Origin: a virus
Taxonomy: Duplodnaviria; Heunggongvirae; Uroviricota; Caudoviricetes
Strand: one strand, 5' to 3'
Virus record (IMG/VR): IMGVR_UViG_2526164619_000005
Span: 1 to 12,767 of that record
DNA length: 12,767 nt
Below, one piece after another: positions 1 through 7,767 of this stretch; position 1 is the stretch's first letter; the number at the start of each line of letters is the position of its first letter. A program made the translations under genes and the position numbers. The notes under the pieces are model-generated. The model had not been told where the DNA came from and made no database searches. It worked only from the letters and a program-made list of their open reading frames with translations.

Positions 1-244
1 AATATATCTCGCTCAAGGCGAGCTTCATTTAACGCCTTACGCAGTTGCAGAATTTCAGATTCCAGTTCAGCCACCGTGCGGGAACCAGGAGTACCGAGCC
101 CTTTTCTGGCGGCGGTAACCCATTGTCCTAAAGTGCCTTCAGGAAGGGATAATCGGGAAGCGCCTTCACTGATCGAAAGTTGATTTTCAAGAACCGTTCT
201 GACAGCTTCGGCTTTGAACTCTTTAGAGTAACGTTGGTTTTTTC
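1..244 (-). mobile_element. Partial IS3-family (IS600-like) copy: orfA codons 3-86 on the minus strand, cut by the window edge and by the IS66-family element at 244/245
   Basis: Reverse complement of 1-244 matches 8219-8462 (orfA of the complete copy) base for base as far as I could compare by eye; the match stops exactly where GTAAGCG begins at 245. Confidence 0.85.
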
Positions 245-330
245 GTAAGCGTAAACTGACCGCCGTATGTAGCCATTAAGCCTGTATTGGTAACGTAGGT
301 GCCCACCTTTTCAACTAGTGGACACCTGTT

Positions 331-751
331 ATGGAACAGAAAGCATTATCTGCAGAACCCCGCAGATCATTTTCAAATGAGTTTAAACTTCAAATGGTTA
401 AACTGGCTTCACAACCAGGAGCCTCTGTTGCCCGTATTGCCCGGGGAACACGATATCAATGATAACCTGCTGTTCAAATGGCTCAGGCTCTGGCAGAACA
501 AAGGGCGCATATCGCGGCGTCTTCCGGTAACAACCTCTTCTGACACTGGCGTTGAATTATTACCTGTGGAGATAACGCCGGATGAGCCGAAAGAACCGGT
601 GGCTGCTCTTACTCCGTCTTTATCTACTCAGACTACAGTTAGTGCCAGCTCCTGCAAGGTGGAGTTCCGTCACGGTAACATGACGCTGGAAAATCCTTCA
701 CCAGAGCTGCTCACAGTGTTGATCCGTGAACTGACCGGGAGGGGACGATGA
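331..751 (+). pseudogene. IS66-family orfA (accessory helix-turn-helix protein), frameshifted
   Basis: ATG at 331 opens a reading frame giving MEQKALSAEPRRSFSNEFKLQMVKLASQPGASVARIAR, which hits a stop at 460-462. The protein continues in the +1 frame (EHDINDNLLFKWLRLWQNKGRISRR... to 751). The switch sits at a run of four G at 443-446, consistent with one extra G. Confidence 0.7.
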
Positions 752-1098
752 TCTCACTCCCGTCAGGCACCCGCATCTGGCTCGTTGCTGGGATAACCGA
801 TATGCGTAAGTCTTTCAACGGGCTGGGTGAACAGGTACAGCATGTGCTGAATGATAATCCCTTCTCCGGTCACCTGTTCATCTTCCGTGGCCGACGGGGT
901 GACATGATTAAAATCCTGTGGGCTGATGCTGATGGTCTGTGCCTGTTCACCAGACGCCTGGAGGAAGGCCAGTTTATCTGGCCTGCTGTGCGTGACGGCA
1001 AGGTATCCATTACCCGCTCGCAACTGGCAATGCTCCTCGATAAGCTGGACTGGCGTCAGCCAAAAACATCCCGCCTTAACGCACTGACAATGTTGTAA
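748..1098 (+). CDS. IS66-family orfB (TnpB-like accessory protein), apparently intact, 116 aa
   Basis: ORF begins MISLPSGTRIWLVAGITDMRKSFNGLGEQV...; its start overlaps the orfA stop (ATGA at 748-751), the usual IS66 arrangement. Confidence 0.8.
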   Translation: MISLPSGTRIWLVAGITDMRKSFNGLGEQVQHVLNDNPFSGHLFIFRGRRGDMIKILWADADGLCLFTRRLEEGQFIWPAVRDGKVSITRSQLAMLLDKLDWRQPKTSRLNALTML

Positions 1099-1128
1099 AA
1101 ATGTCATGGCCGGATTATAAAAACGGCC

Positions 1129-2721
1129 ATGAATCAAAAATACCTCATTCGCATTGCAGAACTGGAATGCCAGCTCCGTCAGAAAGACCAGCAACTGAGT
1201 CTGGTTGAAGAGACGGAGGCCTTCCTGCGCTCTGCACTGGCCCGCGCCGAAGAAAAGATCGAAGAAGATGAACGGGAAATAGAACATCTGCGGGCTCAGA
1301 TAGAAAAACTGCGCCGGATGCTGTTCGGTACCCGTTCTGAAAAACTGCGTCGTGAAGTTGAACAGGCTGAGGCCCTGCTGAAACAAAGCGAACAGGACAG
1401 TGATCGTTACAGTGGGCGGGAAGACGATCCGCAGGTTCCCCGCCAGTTGCGACAGTCTCGTCATCGTCGCCCGTTACCGGAGCATCTGCCCCGCGAAATA
1501 AATCGCCTGGAGCCAGAAGAAAGCTGTTGCCCGGAGTGTGGCGGTGAGCTGGATTATCTGGGGGAAGTCAGCGCAGAACAACTGGAACTGGTGAGCAGCG
1601 CTCTGAAAGTGATCCGCACAGAACGGGTAAAAAAAGCCTGTCCAAAATGTGACTGCATCGTTGAAGCACCGGCACCATCCCGTCCGATAGAGCGTGGTAT
1701 CGCGGGCCCGGGGTTACTTGCCCGCGTGTTAACGGGAAAATACTGCGAACACCTGCCACTGTATCGTCAGAGTGAAATTTTTTGCCCGTCAGGGTGTCGA
1801 ACTGAGCCGTGCATTACTCTCCAACTGGGTTGACGCGTGCTGCCAGTTAATGACGCCGCTGAATGATGCTCTGTACCGTTATGTGATGAACAGCCGCAAA
1901 GTTCACACTGATGACACACCAGTAAAAGTGCTGGCACCGGGCAGGAAGAAGGCGAAAACAGGATATATCTGGACGTATGTCCGGGATGACAGGAATGCCG
2001 GTTCGCCAGAGCCTCCGGCGGTCTGGTTCGCCTACTCACCGGACCATCAGGGTAACATCCGGAGCAGCACCTTAGTCCCTTCCGGGGTATCCTGCAGGCA
2101 GATGCGTTTAATGGTTACGATCGGCTGTTCAGTGCCGAACGAGAAGGCGGCGCGTTGACGGAAGCAGGATGCTGGGCTCATGCGCGGCGCAAAGTCCACG
2201 ATGTATATATCAGTACCAAAAGCGCGACAGCGGAAGAAGCCCTGAAACTAATCGGTGAGCTGTACGCCATCGAGCACGAAATACGCGGGTTGCCGGTGTC
2301 TGAACGCCTGGCGGTCAGGCAAATGCAGAGTAAACTGCTACTGACTTCTCTGTATAAGCTGATGCAGGAGAAAGAACACACGTTATCGAAAAAATGCCGT
2401 CTGAGAGATGCGTTCCGGTATATCAGGAAGCACTGGGTTGCGTTGTGCAACTTCAGTGATGATGGTCTGGCTGAGGCGGATAATAATGCCGCGGAAAGAG
2501 CGCGTCGTGCAGTCTGTCTCGGAAAGAAAAACTTTATGTTCTTCGGCAGCGATCACGGTGGAGAGCGTGGTGCGCTACTGTACGGGCTGATCGGCACCTG
2601 CCGACTGAACGGTATCGATCCGGAAGCGTATCTGCGCTATATCCTGAGCGTACTGCCGGAATGGCCTTCCAACCGTGTTGACGAACTCCTGCCATGGAAC
2701 GTAGCACTCACCAATAAATAA
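1129..2721 (+). pseudogene. IS66-family transposase (orfC/TnpC) broken into three ORFs by two single-base indels
   Basis: Three pieces (1129-1833, 1772-2158, 2155-2721) together read as one transposase (zinc-finger-like CPECGG...CPKCD motif, then ...YIWTYVRDD..., ...AGCWAHARRK...). The frame changes +1 at a run of six T (1778-1783) and returns at a two-A site (2054-2055, ggtaacatcc). Confidence 0.75.
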
Positions 2722-2809
2722 GCGTCAATACGGTGCTCCGTTGACGCTGATATGACTTTCCGTGTCAAACCGGAATCTCTAATTTTGACGATTTTCTTTT
2801 TAGGTTTAA

Positions 2810-2996
2810 TTCCCTGAGGGCGACGTAGCAGTAAATCCGACGGTGAATCACGCTGATATTCGCGGGTTGGATACCGCATTACAGAGGTCCGTCATATGAG
2901 CCTGCCACTTTCTTACGTCGCGAATCAGCTTTGTTCCGCCGTCGCCAAGCGCTAACGTGGGTTACTCTTGTACCGGGCTACGTCGCCTTCAGGGAA
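2810..2996. repeat. Pair of 20-bp inverted repeats (2810-2829 ttccctgagggcgacgtagc; 2977-2996 gctacgtcgccttcagggaa) flanking a 147-bp spacer
   Basis: The arms are reverse complements with one mismatch. They lie between the IS66 transposase stop and the IS110-family transposase stop; meaning unknown. Confidence 0.5.
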
Positions 2997-3013
2997 CTGG
3001 TTATTCTCATTTT

Positions 3014-4141
3014 TTATTTGTGACATTGTGGTTGTTGTGCGACAGACATTGCTATTCGGCCCATATCCCAGATAAAACCCGCCAGCTCACGTGCAACAGC
3101 AACAATTGTAATATTGACATTCTTTCCTTTGGCCTGAAGTTTTCGATACCTCTTACAAAGCCTGAGTTGAGCATCCCATGCTCTGTCAATGACGGGGCGG
3201 GGTAAATTTTCCTGCCTTTTTTGTATTGCCGGACTGATGCGTGCCGGATGACGGTAACTCCACGCTGCCTCGACCAATAGCTTTCTGGCATAGCTGTTTC
3301 CGGCTTTGGTAATGCTGCCCTGATGTCTGCTTCCACCCGATGAATATTCTGATGGCGTGATACCAAACCATGACATCAGTTGTCGTGGATGTTCAAAACG
3401 GGTCAGATCACCCAGTTCAGAAATTAATCCAACCGCAGTAATAAACTGAATCCCTCGCATGGCTTGCAGCGCCTCTACTACCGGATACAGCCTCCATTCG
3501 GTAACGGCCTCCTTCAGGGCGGATTCCAGCCGTTCACATTGTGCCTGCCGGTCTTCTATTGTACGACGGTGTTCGTCAAAAGCTAATTGTCGCCAGGGAC
3601 TTTCGAATGAGTATTTGCTGAGCCAGCGTCGGTGTGCAGGGCCCCAATCTGCTCGCCCGACATAATGGACCCCATGAACCAGAAGAAACGATTTCAGACG
3701 TTGCCTTGCATGCCGTAAATCATCGCGGGCAGATGCCCATGCCCGGGCCAAATCCCGGAATGCCTCATCTTCAATGCCGGGTACGTAGACAGCAGAAAGA
3801 TCTCCTGCACGCAGTGAACGCACAAGTCTGATGGCATCACGGCGATCGGTTTTAACCCGCTCCCCCGGTTTTTTCGGGATAAGTGAGGGGGCGCAGACCA
3901 TGCAGTCAAAACCGGATTTCACCAGCCGACGATAAAGTCCATAACCACAGGGCCACGCTTCATAAACGATACTGACCTGCGATGACTTTGACCTGAGACG
4001 TTTACAAAGATTCTGAATATCAGTAGGTGATGTGCCAATTTTACCCATCAGTTCAACAGGTTCTGAATTGATAGCATAAGCGACAGTAATCGATTCTTTG
4101 TGAACATCTAACCCGACGTACAATGTGTTATTGTTGTTCAT
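3014..4141 (-). CDS. IS110-family transposase (DEDD type), 375 aa, apparently intact
   Basis: Begins MNNNNTLYVGLDVHKESITVAYA... (IS110 N-terminal motif) and has the family's C-terminal region (...GIQFITAVGLISELGDLTRFEHPRQLMSWFGITPSEYSSGG...). GGAGG ribosome-binding site upstream of the ATG at 4139-4141. The six-frame ORF extends to 4189 but the first ATG with a ribosome-binding site is used here. Element boundaries not determined. Confidence 0.85.
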   Translation of the reverse strand: MNNNNTLYVGLDVHKESITVAYAINSEPVELMGKIGTSPTDIQNLCKRLRSKSSQVSIVYEAWPCGYGLYRRLVKSGFDCMVCAPSLIPKKPGERVKTDRRDAIRLVRSLRAGDLSAVYVPGIEDEAFRDLARAWASARDDLRHARQRLKSFLLVHGVHYVGRADWGPAHRRWLSKYSFESPWRQLAFDEHRRTIEDRQAQCERLESALKEAVTEWRLYPVVEALQAMRGIQFITAVGLISELGDLTRFEHPRQLMSWFGITPSEYSSGGSRHQGSITKAGNSYARKLLVEAAWSYRHPARISPAIQKRQENLPRPVIDRAWDAQLRLCKRYRKLQAKGKNVNITIVAVARELAGFIWDMGRIAMSVAQQPQCHK

Positions 4142-4356
4142 GCTGGCCTCCGTGGTGGAAATACCGGGGTGTAGCAACAGCTCACCCATGCGGCTCTGAC
4201 AACGATGTTAACCCGCGTTAAATATCCCACGTTGGCCAGCATCTGTCTCACGGAAAGTCATACTGCCTTACTATCGTATTGATTGATCTGCATCAAATTA
4301 ACGTAAAAGCAACTTCAGATAATACAAATCAGCAACACTGAATATGGGGAAACATT

Positions 4357-4557
4357 ATGTCATCAAAGAACAGAACCCGCAGAACAACAACCCGCAACAT
4401 CCGATTTCCAAACCCGATGATTGAACAAATTAACATCGCTCTTGATCTGAAAGGTTCAGGAAACTTTTCAGCGTGGGTTATTGAAGCCTGCAGGAGAAGG
4501 CTGGCAACAGATGCAACGCATCTGCGCCCGGCCAGCATGAAAAATAACGAGAAATGA
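4357..4557 (+). CDS. Small YlcI-like protein (DUF3950-type, likely ribbon-helix-helix DNA binding), 66 aa
   Basis: MSSKNRTRRTTTRNIRFPNPMIEQINIALDLKGSGNFSAWVIEACRRRL... resembles, from memory, prophage DLP12 YlcI. GGGGA ribosome-binding site before the ATG. Confidence 0.55.
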   Translation: MSSKNRTRRTTTRNIRFPNPMIEQINIALDLKGSGNFSAWVIEACRRRLATDATHLRPASMKNNEK

Positions 4558-4688
4558 ACGTTCGGTTACAGGAGCAGGTACCCACTGTCCTCCAACAATA
4601 TTTCATCTTCATATCCGACGGAACAAGACTTACCCTGCCGGGATGTACAGAATAACAACAGAGTGATAATTAATTTCTGATGAAATAA

Positions 4689-5015
4689 TCAGGGTGCAGA
4701 AGGACTAAAGATAAACGTTTTCTTCACGCCTTTACACGGCCTGTCCTTCTCAAATCGCCATTTTGCCATCGCCTTTACAACCTGCTCATCAAACAAATGG
4801 TGCGGCTCTGAACGGATAAACTCAATTCGAGTGACAGTACCATCAGCACCAATATCAAACTTCACATCAACCCGTCCCTTTATATAATTTGCCGCTGCAT
4901 AGGCCGGATATTGTGGTAATGCCTTAACCAACTGTCGGGGCATATCTGTTTTATGTTGCGTACAGCCCATAACCAGAGAAGACAACAAAATAATTAACGG
5001 AAGGTTTCTTTTCAT
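4689..5015 (-). CDS. Lipoprotein with a TonB C-terminal-like domain, about 108 aa
   Basis: N-terminus MKRNLPLIILLSSLVMGC has signal-peptide character with a lipobox-like VMGC. The body (PQYPAYAAANYIKGRVDVKFDIGADGTVTRIEFIRSEPHHLFDEQVVKAMAKWRFE) aligns motif by motif with the E. coli TonB C-terminal domain as I recall it. Start could be ATG 5021 or 5015; the ORF track's 5030 start is a GTG. Confidence 0.7.
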   Translation of the reverse strand: MKRNLPLIILLSSLVMGCTQHKTDMPRQLVKALPQYPAYAAANYIKGRVDVKFDIGADGTVTRIEFIRSEPHHLFDEQVVKAMAKWRFEKDRPCKGVKKTFIFSPSAP

Positions 5016-5035
5016 TTTCATTCCCGGCACAGATA

Positions 5036-5078
5036 AGAATAAGTCTTATTCTAACAATGCCACCCTGTCGGTCATCAA
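5036..5078 (-). promoter_or_regulatory. Putative sigma70-type promoter plus perfect palindrome (AGAATAAG-T-CTTATTCT, 5036-5052) upstream of the lipoprotein gene
   Basis: On the minus strand: TTGATG (5073-5078), then TAGAAT (5048-5053) with a 19-nt spacer, longer than optimal. The 8-bp-arm palindrome overlaps the -10 element, as an operator would. Confidence 0.3.
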
Positions 5079-5359
5079 TCCTCTGCTTAATGGCAACGAC
5101 AATTATCCGACTTAAATCACAAATCAGACACATGACATAACAGAGCTTGCGAGGTAACACATCGTCCGGTTTCTTCCACCATCGCACCGGACCAGCGACC
5201 ATGAGGGGACAACGCCGCGCTCCGTTAACGCGGTAAACCCCGGTGTGTATCGTTTTTGATTATCCCCGCACACTCGCGCAGAGGAGTCTCCCGGTCGGGC
5301 TGCGGTCTCTGTTAATGCGGGGATACGGCGACAATACCGCGCATGGTTAATAAGGTCGC

Positions 5360-5583
5360 TCAACACACTGGCTGTAATGCAGCGGATACCATGCGGCATT
5401 TAGCGGCATTCATCGTACACTCAACGGTTAGCTCTTCATTCGTGGCATTCACCTGAAAGGTCCGGGAGTGTAATTGCGTACATTTACCACTGAACGAACC
5501 TTCAACAAGAACACGACCACGCTGCAAAATACGGAACGGAATTGTTCCCTGAAAAGGCTTTACGGTTACCAGTAATTTCTTCA
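5360..5583 (-). CDS. Hypothetical 74-aa protein downstream of Rz
   Basis: ATG at 5581-5583 preceded by a GGAGA ribosome-binding site; MKKLLVTVKPFQGTIPFRILQRGRVLVEGSFSGKCTQLHSRTF.... No family recognised. Confidence 0.4.
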
Positions 5584-5607
5584 TGCATTCTCCGGATAAC
5601 AAAAATA

Positions 5608-6081
5608 CTAGTTAATACACTGAGTGCGGATATATTCCTGCGCCCCTTCCAGTTGCTTCTGCATTGTCATCAACCGCTCTCTGAGGGTGAAATAATCCCG
5701 TTCAGCGGTGTCTGCCAGTCGGGGGCCGGTTGCATTATCCATTCCGGAGGTGCCGGTGGCTTCACGCACGGTACCGGAGCAGGTGGCGTTGATCCGCAGG
5801 CGCTTACGACCAGCGGCAACATCAGCACGCAGAGTTTCATTTTCAGCTCTCGCATCGGCTAATTCCCTTGAGTATCTGGCATCAAGCGCAGCAACATCAC
5901 GCTGGCGCTGCTGCATGTCAGTAATGGTTGCGTTTGCCAGCTCCAGCTCTCTGGCTTTTTTATCGCGCTGCGCTTTGTAGGTGATGGCGTTATCACGGTA
6001 ATGGTCTGTTGCCAGCCACAGCGCACCACAGACCACCAGCAGAATAACGGTAAACGCGGAAAGCATTCGGTTTATGTTCAC
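5608..6081 (-). CDS. Rz: Rz inner-membrane spanin (i-spanin), lambda-like
   Basis: ...[55 protein letters not shown]...[27 protein letters not shown] matches lambda Rz closely from memory. Start is either GTG 6079-6081 or ATG 6064-6066. Confidence 0.85.
5670..5840 (-). CDS. Rz1: Rz1 outer-membrane lipoprotein spanin (o-spanin), embedded in Rz in the +1 frame
   Basis: [56 protein letters not shown]: lipobox, proline-rich, same architecture as lambda Rz1. Confidence 0.8.
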
Positions 6082-6209
6082 CCCAGCAGCCCCGACGAAG
6101 ACAACATCATCCAGGCCATGGAAAGAAAAAGAGCAACCAGCATTAGTGAAAATGAAATGCCGACAATTACACAGAGGATCTTCGCCAGCGTTATGAGTTT
6201 GTCTGACAT
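6078..6209 (-). CDS. 43-aa hydrophobic single-helix membrane peptide
   Basis: [49 protein letters not shown] ribosome-binding site 8 nt upstream; its TGA stop overlaps the GTG start of Rz (GTGA). Confidence 0.45.
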
Positions 6210-6223
6210 GCTTAATCCTCCCT

Positions 6224-6406
6224 TCACGATTTCAACGCAATGACCAGTTTTGCCAGCCCATACAGCATCGGGGACACAGCAACACCGACCGCCACCCACT
6301 TAATGGCAAAAGCCAGTGCTCTGCTGATGTCATCAGTTACAGGCGCTTTCAGTTCAAGGCCGTTTTTCATGGTCAACCTCAACAGAATTCGTTTATACTT
6401 CGCCAT
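6224..6406 (-). CDS. 61-aa small protein with a C-terminal hydrophobic helix
   Basis: [66 protein letters not shown] ribosome-binding site upstream; stop is 14 nt before the 43-aa ORF. Confidence 0.45.
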
Positions 6407-6432
6407 GTTCTCCCTTGCCTTACTCAAGGTCA

Positions 6433-6467
6433 GAAACACAAAACCCCGCTTGGTGCCAACAAACGGG
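6433..6467 (-). terminator. Rho-independent-type terminator hairpin (minus strand), between endolysin and the small ORFs
   Basis: Minus-strand RNA: 8-bp stem CCCGUUUG/CAAGCGGG (one G-U pair), loop UUGGCAC, then GUUUUGUGUUUC. The plus strand also shows a hairpin followed by TTTTTT (6468-6473). Confidence 0.55.
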
Positions 6468-6604
6468 TTTTTTACTTTTATTCACTTACGTTTCGCCAGT
6501 TCGCAGGATTTCGTGTTATCCGTCCGCGTGCTCATGTCTTATTTTTCAGCAAAATATTCTGCTTATCTGTCGATGTCCCAGCACGCCAGCGCACTTTCCT
6601 GGTC

Positions 6605-7096
6605 TCACCGGGATACCTGACCGTAGCAATTATTTGAGCGGATACGGCAGTCTCTGCCACCGTCCTTAATCCACCAGCGAATCGCTTCGCATGCTCCCCT
6701 GCGGTCACCAGCATTAATCCGTCTGTAAAACGTCGACGGGAAACACTTACCGGGGCCAATGTTATAGGGACAAAATGACGCGATACCCGCTTTCTGGGGT
6801 TCGGTCAGCGGCACTTTAATATTGCGCTCCACCCATGCCAGCGCCTTATCACGCTCAATGGCGTTGACCTGGTCGCATTTTTCCTTCGACAACTTCATGC
6901 CCGGGACGACAGGTTTACTATCCACCAGGATGGCACCGCGGCAGATGGTCCAGATACCCGCGCCATCACGGTATGCCGTGGTGTGGTTACCTTCCTTTTC
7001 ATCCAGAAACTGGTCGAGGATTTCAGGCGCAGGCGCACCTGCGGCAATCAGCGCCAGAACGGCAGCCGACAGGCCGTATTTGATTTTGGTGTTCAT
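6605..7096 (-). CDS. Phage endolysin (lysozyme) of the signal-anchor-release type, RrrD/P21-like
   Basis: N-terminal hydrophobic anchor (MNTKIKYGLSAAVLALIAAGAPAPE) followed by a lysozyme-like body (...EGNHTTAYRDGAGIWTICRG...). Stop is TGA at 6605-6607 (see findings). Confidence 0.85.
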   Translation of the reverse strand: MNTKIKYGLSAAVLALIAAGAPAPEILDQFLDEKEGNHTTAYRDGAGIWTICRGAILVDSKPVVPGMKLSKEKCDQVNAIERDKALAWVERNIKVPLTEPQKAGIASFCPYNIGPGKCFPSTFYRRINAGDRRGACEAIRWWIKDGGRDCRIRSNNCYGQVSR

Positions 7097-7138
7097 GGAT
7101 ATTTATCAGGGTTTATCGATTTCAAATCCCTGGATATG

Positions 7139-7471
7139 TTAAGTCTTCAGAGAACCAGTAATTATTCCCGGTAGTTTTCCTCTGTAGGTTATCAACACAT
7201 CCTGCGCCTCTAAAATTACGGGGCGCTTTTCCGGCAACGGACCATCCCCTTCACATAACCCGGCAGCAACATCCATGAAAAACTGCTTCGCCTGCTTTTT
7301 CGCCTCAGCTTCGTAAAACTCCAGCGTGGCATCTTCAGTACGGTCAAGACTAATCGCCACATCTGGCAACAACAGTGACGGACACCCACCAATTTCCAGT
7401 GCCACAGTAACAGTAATCTTATTCGGGTAATTATTTATCCCTTTAACAACCAGTTCGTATTTTTTCTTCAT
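7139..7471 (-). CDS. Hypothetical 110-aa protein between holin and endolysin (possibly YdfR/DUF1327-like by position)
   Basis: ATG 7469-7471 with GGGGAGAG ribosome-binding site, 4 nt after the holin stop. MKKKYELVVKGINNYPNKITVTVALEIGGCPSLLLPD.... Family assignment is by synteny memory only. Confidence 0.55.
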   Translation of the reverse strand: MKKKYELVVKGINNYPNKITVTVALEIGGCPSLLLPDVAISLDRTEDATLEFYEAEAKKQAKQFFMDVAAGLCEGDGPLPEKRPVILEAQDVLITYRGKLPGIITGSLKT

Positions 7472-7475
7472 CGCT

Positions 7476-7691
7476 TTACTCTCCCCGCGCCGCCTTACGA
7501 CGGTCCTCTCTGATTTTGAAATACAGGTTAGTCAGATATGTCAGCAGCCCAAACAACAGACTCCCCAGCACGCCTATTGCCGCCCACTGAGACGGGGAAA
7601 CCCTGTCCAGCAACTGCAGGAACCAGTAGCCCGTTCCCACCGCAGATGTGGTGTATGACACACCTGTTGTGATTTTTTCCATCTGGTACAT
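7476..7691 (-). CDS. Class II holin (S21-like pinholin) with dual-start motif MYQM
   Basis: [71 protein letters not shown]: S21/EssD-like. Two in-frame ATGs (7689-7691 and 7680-7682) would give 71- and 68-aa forms. Confidence 0.85.
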
Positions 7692-7767
7692 ACCCCGTCT
7701 CCCGCAATCCGGAAGCTCACAACAATATAAAGACCACCGGCACACACCGATGGTCCCTTGCGCATGC

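Follow-up and report, generated by a model that had tools for sequence, protein, structure and literature searches.

Two predicted membrane-peptide genes at the lysozyme-to-spanin junction of a common Qin/Stx-phage-type lysis cassette in a degraded prophage

The stretch of DNA analysed here (the window, 12,767 nucleotides (nt)) comprises positions 1 to 12,767 of the IMG/VR virus record IMGVR_UViG_2526164619_000005, assigned to the Caudoviricetes, and carries a lysis cassette between positions 5608 and 7691. All cassette genes lie on the minus strand (Table 1; coordinates throughout are positions in the window unless another locus is named). The interval is a common lambdoid late-operon lysis cassette of the Qin/Shiga toxin (Stx)-phage type, residing in a degraded prophage. 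Its core genes are an S21-class pinholin, a signal-anchored lysozyme and the spanin pair Rz/Rz1, while three accessory genes fill two variable junctions: a YdfR-family gene between holin and lysozyme, and two small open reading frames (ORFs) of 60 and 43 amino acids (aa), termed ORF60 and ORF43, between lysozyme and Rz. A first-pass annotation of the window had described this gene order, the S21-type holin, the lambda-like Rz/Rz1, the terminator hairpin between endolysin and small ORFs, and the overlap (GTGA) of the 43-aa ORF with Rz, all of which were borne out by the sequence, by a terminator scan and by family matches (PF04971, PF03245, PF06085). The size given for ORF43 was likewise correct, and the ORF reported as 61 aa proved to be 60 aa long. 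Profile searches of the three additional products returned PF07041, phrog_1115 and phrog_4906, respectively; none of the three genes is new to databases, and the cassette is a further copy of a known, common kind.

Table 1. Features of the lysis cassette and its immediate flank in the window.
Feature	Position	Strand	Evidence
S21-class (class II) holin, 71 aa	7476-7691	-	PF04971, E = 9e-33 over residues 5-67; PHROG matches phrog_9876 and phrog_20, both annotated holin
YdfR/DUF1327 protein, 110 aa	7139-7471	-	PF07041, E = 8e-44
RrrQ-like GH24 lysozyme, 163 aa	6605-7096	-	PF00959, E = 4e-23
Spacer with hairpin	~6604-6407	-	~155 nt past full-length lysozyme end (~6563)
Conserved flank 3' of lysozyme, ~90 nt	6476-6562	-	blastn against Stx phages
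A-tract, GC hairpin (stem and terminator-like site 6467-6445) and T-tract	6434-6474	-	Terminator scan, fold
ORF60, 60 aa	6224-6406	-	phrog_1115, E = 3e-43; ATG at 6406, stop 6224-6226
Promoter-like motif opposite ORF60	6370-6399	+	Promoter scan: TGGTCA-18 nt-TATACT
ORF43, 43 aa	6078-6209	-	phrog_4906, E = 2e-23
Rz i-spanin	5608-6081 (GTG, 157 aa) or 5608-6066 (ATG, 152 aa)	-	PF03245, E = 7e-50
Rz1 o-spanin lipoprotein, 61 aa	5670-5855	-	PF06085, E = 1.5e-19; lipobox VVSAC
73-aa gene MKKLLVTVKPF...	5360-5581	-	phrog_2571, E = 2e-27; follows spanin slot

The arrangement had been regarded as departing from the textbook one, a view that did not survive comparison with other genomes. The succession of holin, YdfR and lysozyme is that of the Escherichia coli K-12 prophage Qin (essQ-ydfR-rrrQ-rzpQ), in which ydfR holds the same position as the 110-aa gene of the window, and the small ORFs occur in about 18% of complete E. 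coli genomes: the 571-base-pair (bp) lysozyme-to-Rz interval was recovered at a coverage of at least 80% from 990 of 5426, in up to 10 places per genome. RefSeq annotations of relatives list a class II holin, a YdfR-family protein, a lysozyme, two hypothetical proteins (60 and 43 aa) and a lysis protein in this order, and the plaque-forming temperate phages PhiR12 and the PhiR5 series share the gene order of the window. The small ORFs are thus conserved, annotated parts of common lambdoid cassettes, as the first-pass annotation had considered for genes of known function; here the function is missing, all database names for both being 'hypothetical protein' and their PHROG families (1115/4493 for ORF60, 4906 for ORF43) being of unannotated function.

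Besides the position of ydfR, the window shares with Qin the holin family and the lysozyme, which is about 90% identical to K-12 RrrQ; the first-pass assignment of the endolysin to the phage 21/DLP12 type accordingly gives way to an RrrQ/Qin-like one, its signal-anchor-like N-terminus being retained. In Qin, however, rrrQ abuts the spanin gene, with ORF60, ORF43 and the hairpin all absent, and the spanin itself (rzpQ/rzoQ) is of the DUF2514 type, whereas that of the window is of the lambda Rz type. The Stx phages (BP-4795, 933W-like, Sakai Sp10) share the holin, the lysozyme and its 3' flank, a terminator-like hairpin where the insert begins, and an ORF43 homologue (ORF50 in BP-4795, ECs_1966 in Sakai) directly before Rz, but differ in carrying a 189-aa Ant-like gene (P22_AR_N domain) in the ORF60 slot and a hairpin of other sequence. 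The flank of about 90 nt 3' of the lysozyme is 84% identical (blastn) to BP-4795 and a 933W-like phage, where it lies upstream of ant, and the similarity stops exactly where the hairpins begin. A motif of this flank, GGATAACAC(G/A)AAATCC, is met again behind an endolysin of unrelated type in a Salmonella-type cassette; besides the window, the loci showing the flank or its motif are L085 (1647-1740) and L089 (~2860-2900).

About 310 loci were collected for the tabulation of gene order and for the estimation of selection. Four main orders emerged, the first two being that of the window, in which an S21 holin, an optional YdfR gene and a GH24 lysozyme are followed by ORF60, ORF43 and Rz, and that of the Stx phages named above, identical except for Ant in place of ORF60. 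In a third order, two-holin cassettes with a GH108 or M15 endolysin continue, in some cases through a 93-aa protein, into an ORF60 relative and a 60-aa lipoprotein, without Rz; in a fourth, a GH108 endolysin is followed by an ORF60 relative and Rz. Because these orders differ across loci, the lysozyme-to-spanin junction is best described as a variable slot. ORF43 was found by tblastn in 276 phage records, mostly unannotated and including most Stx phages, and stands directly upstream of Rz in every locus that reaches far enough, with the exception of three loci that have the 60-aa lipoprotein instead. ORF43 is therefore the constant member beside the spanin position, and the place upstream of it is taken by either ORF60 or Ant. 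The GH108 cassette L097 combines the ORF60-ORF43 pair with a small lipoprotein (Lpp60) in place of Rz and then the 73-aa gene (phrog_2571), which follows Rz itself in the window and in locus L207; this gene probably belongs to the same block as the cassette.

The lipoprotein occupying the Rz/Rz1 place is 60-65 aa long, has the lipobox LLVGC and belongs to phrog_7528 (L155, 3246-3428; L156, 1259-1441; L097, 3325-3522). Its mature part comprises about 30 aa with three Cys residues, its flanking genes are the same, and those cassettes hold no recognisable spanin. In size it recalls the bacteriocin-release or lysis lipoproteins, and it may be an undescribed outer-membrane lysis factor. A miniature two-component spanin made of ORF60 and this 60-aa lipoprotein was considered and rejected, the periplasmic length being insufficient in both.

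At three loci (L002, 2276-2392; L034, 2432-2545; L041, 2637-2750) a third small gene after ORF43 matches the last 38 residues of ORF60, at its C-terminus. In a single database protein (P0092) ORF43 is fused to ORF60, and the C-terminus of ORF43 is frameshifted in 13 loci. The extra fragment, the fusion and the frameshifts together indicate that the ORF60/ORF43 junction actively recombines and decays.

ORF60 and ORF43 are real genes under purifying selection, as judged from their substitution patterns. The ratios of non-synonymous to synonymous substitution rates (dN/dS), obtained as pooled pairwise Nei-Gojobori estimates over unique sequences, were 0.17 for ORF60, 0.38 for ORF43 and 0.33 for the divergent 'RWW' branch of the ORF60 family in the annotated frame, which gave the lowest values; the reverse frame sharing third codon positions gave 0.34-0.43, as expected for a mirror frame, and the remaining four frames 0.7-4.2. 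Variable sites concentrate at third codon positions, and nearly all changes in the first 15 codons of ORF60 are synonymous. The two overlapping plus-strand ORFs (6001-6243 and 6240-6620) were rejected as genes by the same frame-specific dN/dS. The ribosome-binding sites that the first-pass annotation had called strong are AAGGGAG before ORF60 and GGGAGGA 6 nt before the ORF43 ATG. Gene callers differ on the start of ORF60, placing 60-, 48- or 71-aa products, and an invariant GAGG precedes Met13.

Sequence families give little further hold on either product. Profile searches against Pfam, NCBIfam, PADLOC and PDB returned no match for ORF60; for ORF43, NCBIfam, PADLOC and PDB returned none and Pfam only a sub-threshold hit to DUF3930 (E = 0.08). 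Only 30 representatives of the ORF60 family were found among 1.84 billion cluster representatives, and its members come solely from prophages of Escherichia, Salmonella, Klebsiella, Serratia, Yersinia and Enterobacter. When one genome per species was scanned, no ORF60 relative appeared, and the single ORF43 match was a 328-bp contaminant contig. A full-text literature search with the protein accessions of ORF60 and ORF43 gave no match.

The hydropathy of both products agrees with the first-pass description of them as hydrophobic. ORF43 is essentially one predicted transmembrane helix (residues 11-36; Kyte-Doolittle hydropathy 2.89 over residues 11-29), preceded by a short, slightly basic N-terminus and followed by a tail of 7 residues. 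ORF60 has a net charge of +7, and AlphaFold (24-sequence alignment; predicted local distance difference test (pLDDT) score 69) predicts a helix at residues 2-15, a short loop and a 38-residue helix at residues 22-59; a beta-hairpin N-terminus, also considered, was discarded on the basis of this two-helix prediction. The first helix is amphipathic (KYKRILLRL), and the second half of the long one is membrane-like (residues 38-56, Kyte-Doolittle 1.88).

The hairpin travels with ORF60. In the window it reads CCCGTTTG-7 nt-CAAGCGGG, followed by GTTTTGTGTT, and across lineages it shares the core AAAACCCCG...CGGGGTTTT between A-rich and T-rich tracts. This succession of A-tract, hairpin and T-tract is located 14-70 nt upstream of ORF60 in every full-length copy examined, whatever its context, being missing only from a truncated Yersinia remnant; since it precedes ORF60 in every full-length context, it belongs to the ORF60 unit and not to the lysozyme. 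The inner stem differs among copies, and 4 of the 12 stem pairs have changed in a compensatory way; the window copy is weakened by a C-to-A change (-10 kcal/mol, versus -18 to -21 in close relatives). Rfam scans of window positions 5000-8300 and six related loci gave no match for the hairpin or leader, only sub-threshold chance matches to terminator-containing leaders.

The contexts of ORF60 extend well beyond one type of cassette. It follows three unrelated endolysin types (GH24, GH108 and M15), and relatives are found in Klebsiella and Serratia myovirus prophages, where the genes for the baseplate hub and the sheath initiator flank them, in a P2-like tail operon, between the genes of the tube and the tail chaperone, and after tail-fibre genes in Salmonella and in one metagenome contig; a truncated copy stands before Rz in a Yersinia enterocolitica prophage remnant. 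Copies outside lysis cassettes are always co-oriented with the late genes. ORF60 is accordingly, from its distribution among sequenced loci, a self-contained mobile unit composed of A-tract, GC hairpin, T-tract, a short Shine-Dalgarno leader and the ORF. Of the three ideas offered in the first-pass annotation (a moron, a lysis-timing module or a toxic small-peptide pair), that of a moron suits ORF60 best: a mobile, self-contained add-on it is, albeit one with no promoter and with its terminator upstream.

A transcript starting after the terminator, as the first-pass annotation had envisaged, finds no counterpart in the promoter scans: no sense sigma-70-like promoter (at least 9 of 12) preceded ORF60 in either the window or five further lineages. 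The gap of 14-70 nt between hairpin and ORF60 start codon is too short for a promoter, and ORF43, which touches or overlaps the gene on either side, carries no separate regulatory signals; ORF60 and ORF43 are therefore read as transcribed from upstream with the late operon. In the late operon of phage lambda, Q-modified RNA polymerase reads through intrinsic terminators. The terminator, which had been presented as an oddity within a lysis operon, is not alone in this one, as a second, strong terminator-like hairpin, with 13 pairs and a T-rich run behind it, separates the DUF826 gene from the holin (7758-7729, minus strand), making terminators the rule here. Prophage small RNAs (sRNAs) of the PasA/PasC type have been reported between esterase and holin genes, and this second hairpin may be the 3' end of such an sRNA. 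Pas sRNAs were also considered as occupants of the lysozyme-to-Rz interval and rejected, since they map between esterase and holin instead.

A promoter-like motif on the opposite strand, T[AGT]G[TA]CA-18 nt-TATA[CA]T, occurs at the identical position within the 5' end of all 72 unique ORF60-family sequences, against a background of 0.43 matches per kb per strand. It reaches TATAAT in Klebsiella and Serratia and is present in the tail-operon copies. A Salmonella lineage with a diverged N-terminus (DKYNRISVEAN) keeps TATACT with another -35 and a 16-nt spacer (TTGGCC-16-TATACT). A putative transcript from this motif may begin across from the ORF60 ATG and run over the ribosome-binding site and leader as far as the hairpin, where the A-tract becomes a U-tail on the antisense strand; in the window the T-run is better on the antisense than on the sense side. 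Such an RNA would have a predicted length of about 70 nt in the window, other lineages allowing up to about 100 nt.

The Hfq-bound RNAs of enterohaemorrhagic E. coli Sakai (Tree et al., 2014, Table S2) were considered as candidates for this antisense RNA and discarded, Sp10 carrying Ant and not ORF60. Among them, the abundant EcOnc11 (Tree et al., 2014) maps to 1946819-1946867 on the minus strand of Sakai Sp10 (locus L316), in the gap just downstream of Rz, where it is antisense to the late operon and adjoins the small minus-strand gene ECs_1967. In Sp9, EcOnc12 would lie at the equivalent distance.

Taken together, we interpret ORF60 and ORF43, with moderate confidence, as accessory peptides of the inner membrane that are expressed late, lie behind an insulating terminator and act as non-essential modulators of envelope disruption in a common cassette. 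Many working cassettes lack them, which places them outside the core lysis genes, and closely related cassettes have one, both or neither, a dispensability that underlies their reading as accessory modulators. Transcription would run from the holin through YdfR, seated before the lysozyme as in K-12 Qin, and ORF60 would be made only when late transcription, in lambdoid phages by Q-modified polymerase, reads through the hairpin, which would shield the lysogen from leaky expression of both peptides. A short antisense RNA arising from the motif in the first 12 ORF60 codons and ending at the hairpin would constitute a second lock, and this layout of terminator plus antisense signal suggests that ill-timed production of ORF60 would be harmful. 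ORF43, translationally linked to the preceding gene and to Rz, would be made together with the spanin. The predicted destination of both peptides, late in infection, is the inner membrane, where they would affect the timing or efficiency of lysis. From its single-helix sequence, ORF43 probably acts via helix-helix contacts with a neighbour, for instance the Rz anchor, the pinholin or the signal anchor of the lysozyme, while the scattered contexts of ORF60 imply an action independent of adjacent lysis genes.

Several observations weigh against this interpretation. The ORF60 relatives in tail and baseplate operons weaken a function tied to lysis, and the cassettes of lambda, phage 21 and K-12 Qin work without either gene. 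Antitermination by Q, not expected in the P2-like tail operon, leaves the strong terminator there unexplained; that hairpin may be a partial terminator lowering downstream expression. Conserved codons (K-Y-K and L-T/S-M/I) coincide with the antisense motif, whose spacer is 18 nt long; conservation of the motif may simply mirror constraint on the protein, the third position of the Tyr codon being the sole informative synonymous site within it. Predicted folds of the leader and antisense RNA were no better than shuffled controls (z ~ -1, from single-sequence folding). The GAGG before Met13 may be the ribosome-binding site of a shorter, 48-aa ORF60 isoform, a product called by many gene finders, and the prophages with frameshifted ORF43 indicate that constraint on this gene is not universal.

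The regulatory layout of ORF60 also invites comparison with type I loci that have a 5'-overlapping antisense RNA, such as symE/SymR and hok/Sok. Like them, the ORF60 unit pairs a small hydrophobic ORF with an opposite-strand promoter-like motif in the ORF 5' end and a terminator just upstream of the ribosome-binding site, and ORF60 with its flank could accordingly form a type I toxin-antitoxin-like unit, in which a cis-antisense RNA blocks a membrane toxin serving prophage maintenance or abortive infection, not lysis. Such a role would suit a small, cationic, hydrophobic product whose unit moves alone between unrelated operons. It would also suit a hairpin that, with its A-tract and T-tract, could terminate both ways, and the conservation of the upstream A-rich tract, needed only by an antisense terminator; the motif itself is found in every unique sequence, its -10 being kept even in the diverged Salmonella lineage. 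We nevertheless consider this unlikely, and with it the toxic small-peptide idea of the first-pass annotation, which stays a minority reading. No promoter for a toxin mRNA was found in any lineage, and the predicted transmembrane helix of ORF60 is C-terminal, whereas known type I toxins usually have an N-terminal one. Rfam and PADLOC gave no match, ORF60 has no homology to a known family, the Sakai Hfq-bound RNAs that were checked map elsewhere, and motif conservation is confounded by codon conservation, the spacer being 18 nt.

That ORF60 and/or ORF43 are required lysis factors, acting either at a holin or endolysin-release step or at an outer-membrane step, seems improbable. Precedents for extra small membrane lysis proteins are the Mu releasin gp25 and Lcc6 of the Shewanella phage LambdaSo, a 65-aa membrane protein needed in a system that pairs a pinholin with a signal-anchor-release (SAR) endolysin (bioRxiv 10.1101/2024.01.23.576932). 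Both are small single-pass inner-membrane proteins working with the pinholin/SAR-endolysin system, and the main ORF60 subfamily and all ORF43 copies are located inside lysis cassettes beside the spanin slot. Neither precedent, however, has sequence similarity to ORF60 or ORF43, and a whole-Pfam scan matched neither ORF to any model, including DUF2730, the releasin family. Lysis does not proceed without Lcc6, whose gene is remote from the other lysis genes, whereas ORF60 and ORF43 appear dispensable from their patchy presence among close cassettes sharing holin, lysozyme and Rz; ORF60 additionally occurs in tail operons. For an outer-membrane step, ORF60 is strongly cationic, and in the Rz-less cassettes it is followed by the small lipoprotein in the Rz/Rz1 position. 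A disruptin of the phiKT gp28 type, however, has no membrane helix and comes from a spanin-less phage, whereas ORF60 has a 19-residue hydrophobic segment of the membrane-spanning type and the window encodes Rz/Rz1.

The moron concept of lambdoid phages (Juhala et al., 2000, as cited in PMC4104026) supplies a further alternative, which we regard as quite improbable: ORF60 and ORF43 would be lysogenic-conversion genes, expressed from the prophage and acting on the host envelope in superinfection exclusion or stress tolerance, like Bor, Lom and Cor. Both encode predicted small membrane proteins at junctions that in other phages are empty or hold another accessory gene (Ant), and the ORF60 unit, like a classical moron, is extra DNA with varied junctions between genes that are adjacent elsewhere (rrrQ and rzpQ in Qin). 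One ORF60 lineage, after tail-fibre genes and with a downstream terminator, even occupies a classic moron site. The signals are nonetheless arranged the other way round: a classical moron has its promoter upstream and its terminator downstream, whereas the ORF60 unit has a strong terminator ahead of it and no detectable sense promoter. ORF43 overlaps or abuts both neighbours and has no signals of its own, and all copies are co-oriented with late genes. Finally, the notion that the small ORFs are frames left open by chance within a non-coding spacer, as their shortness and the disagreement of callers on the ORF60 start might suggest, is refuted by dN/dS values well below 1 only in the annotated and mirror frames, mostly synonymous changes in the first 15 codons, two strong ribosome-binding sites and conservation across Escherichia, Salmonella, Klebsiella, Serratia and Yersinia, and is extremely improbable.

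A bolder extension of our interpretation as accessory modulators, which we put forward tentatively and judge doubtful, is that the ORF60 unit represents an undescribed late-operon mobile cassette of Enterobacterales prophages, consisting of a bidirectional terminator, a leader and a gene for a cationic membrane peptide of 45-68 aa with an internal antisense promoter, and forming with ORF43 a new class of accessory envelope-acting peptides. If this were true, the peptide would be doubly locked in the lysogen and released only in lytic growth, and the peptides could set lysis timing and so toxin release. Shiga toxin exits largely via phage lysis, so that factors shifting its timing are medically relevant. 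Two conserved coding families of predicted small membrane proteins, with neither a name nor a Pfam family, are lodged among the lysis genes in a large share of E. coli prophages: ORF43 as a near-constant unnamed partner of Rz in Stx phages and ORF60 as a terminator-first mobile unit that is possibly antisense-controlled.

The remaining cassette genes conform to known families. The holin begins with MYQM, in which Met1 and Met4 form a dual-start motif as read from the sequence; the extra positive charge found between the two starts of phage 21 S21 is absent. It has a single clear hydrophobic segment at residues 36-54, the first segment being weakly hydrophobic. The YdfR gene starts 4 nt past the holin stop and encodes a cytoplasmic protein; YdfR has been reported to bind the catalytic half of RNase E and to co-purify with RNA (2026 study, PMC13232886). 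The lysozyme has the catalytic triad E35-x8-D44-x5-T50, read from the translation, and an Ala/Gly-rich N-terminus (residues 9-27, LSAAVLALIAAGAPAPEIL; Kyte-Doolittle hydropathy 1.74) that is signal-anchor-like, cleavage and release being indistinguishable at this level. A premature TGA at 6605-6607, arisen by a CGA-to-TGA change, replaces an Arg codon present in 190 of 190 relatives and costs the protein 14 C-terminal residues, the remnant of the last 14 codons reaching ~6563; the window lysozyme is thus not the intact, full-length protein expected of a SAR endolysin. Rz1 is nested in Rz in another frame, forming an embedded two-component spanin. Rz may start at the GTG overlapping the stop of ORF43 or at an ATG 15 nt further downstream, the latter being chosen by the NCBI pipeline PGAP in relatives.

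Three insertion sequence (IS) elements lie in the window: an IS3-family element at 8212-9500 (plus strand), an IS110-family element at 3014-4189 (minus strand) and a split IS66-family element at 1129-2721 (plus strand). The sialate esterase gene (9393-10781) is cut off by the IS3 copy from the rest of the late operon, which includes the DUF826 gene and the holin; downstream of the lysis cassette, the region is taken up by the IS110- and IS66-family copies. A terminase gene was not detected anywhere in the window. The nonsense codon in the lysozyme, together with the three nearby IS elements, marks the prophage as defective or decaying. Downstream of the spanins, a gene at 4689-5030 (minus strand) encodes a 113-aa lipoprotein whose C-terminal domain is of the TonB family (PF03544), roughly where bor lies in lambda. 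The PHROGs label of its family (phrog_1267), 'Rz-like spanin', looks mislabelled.

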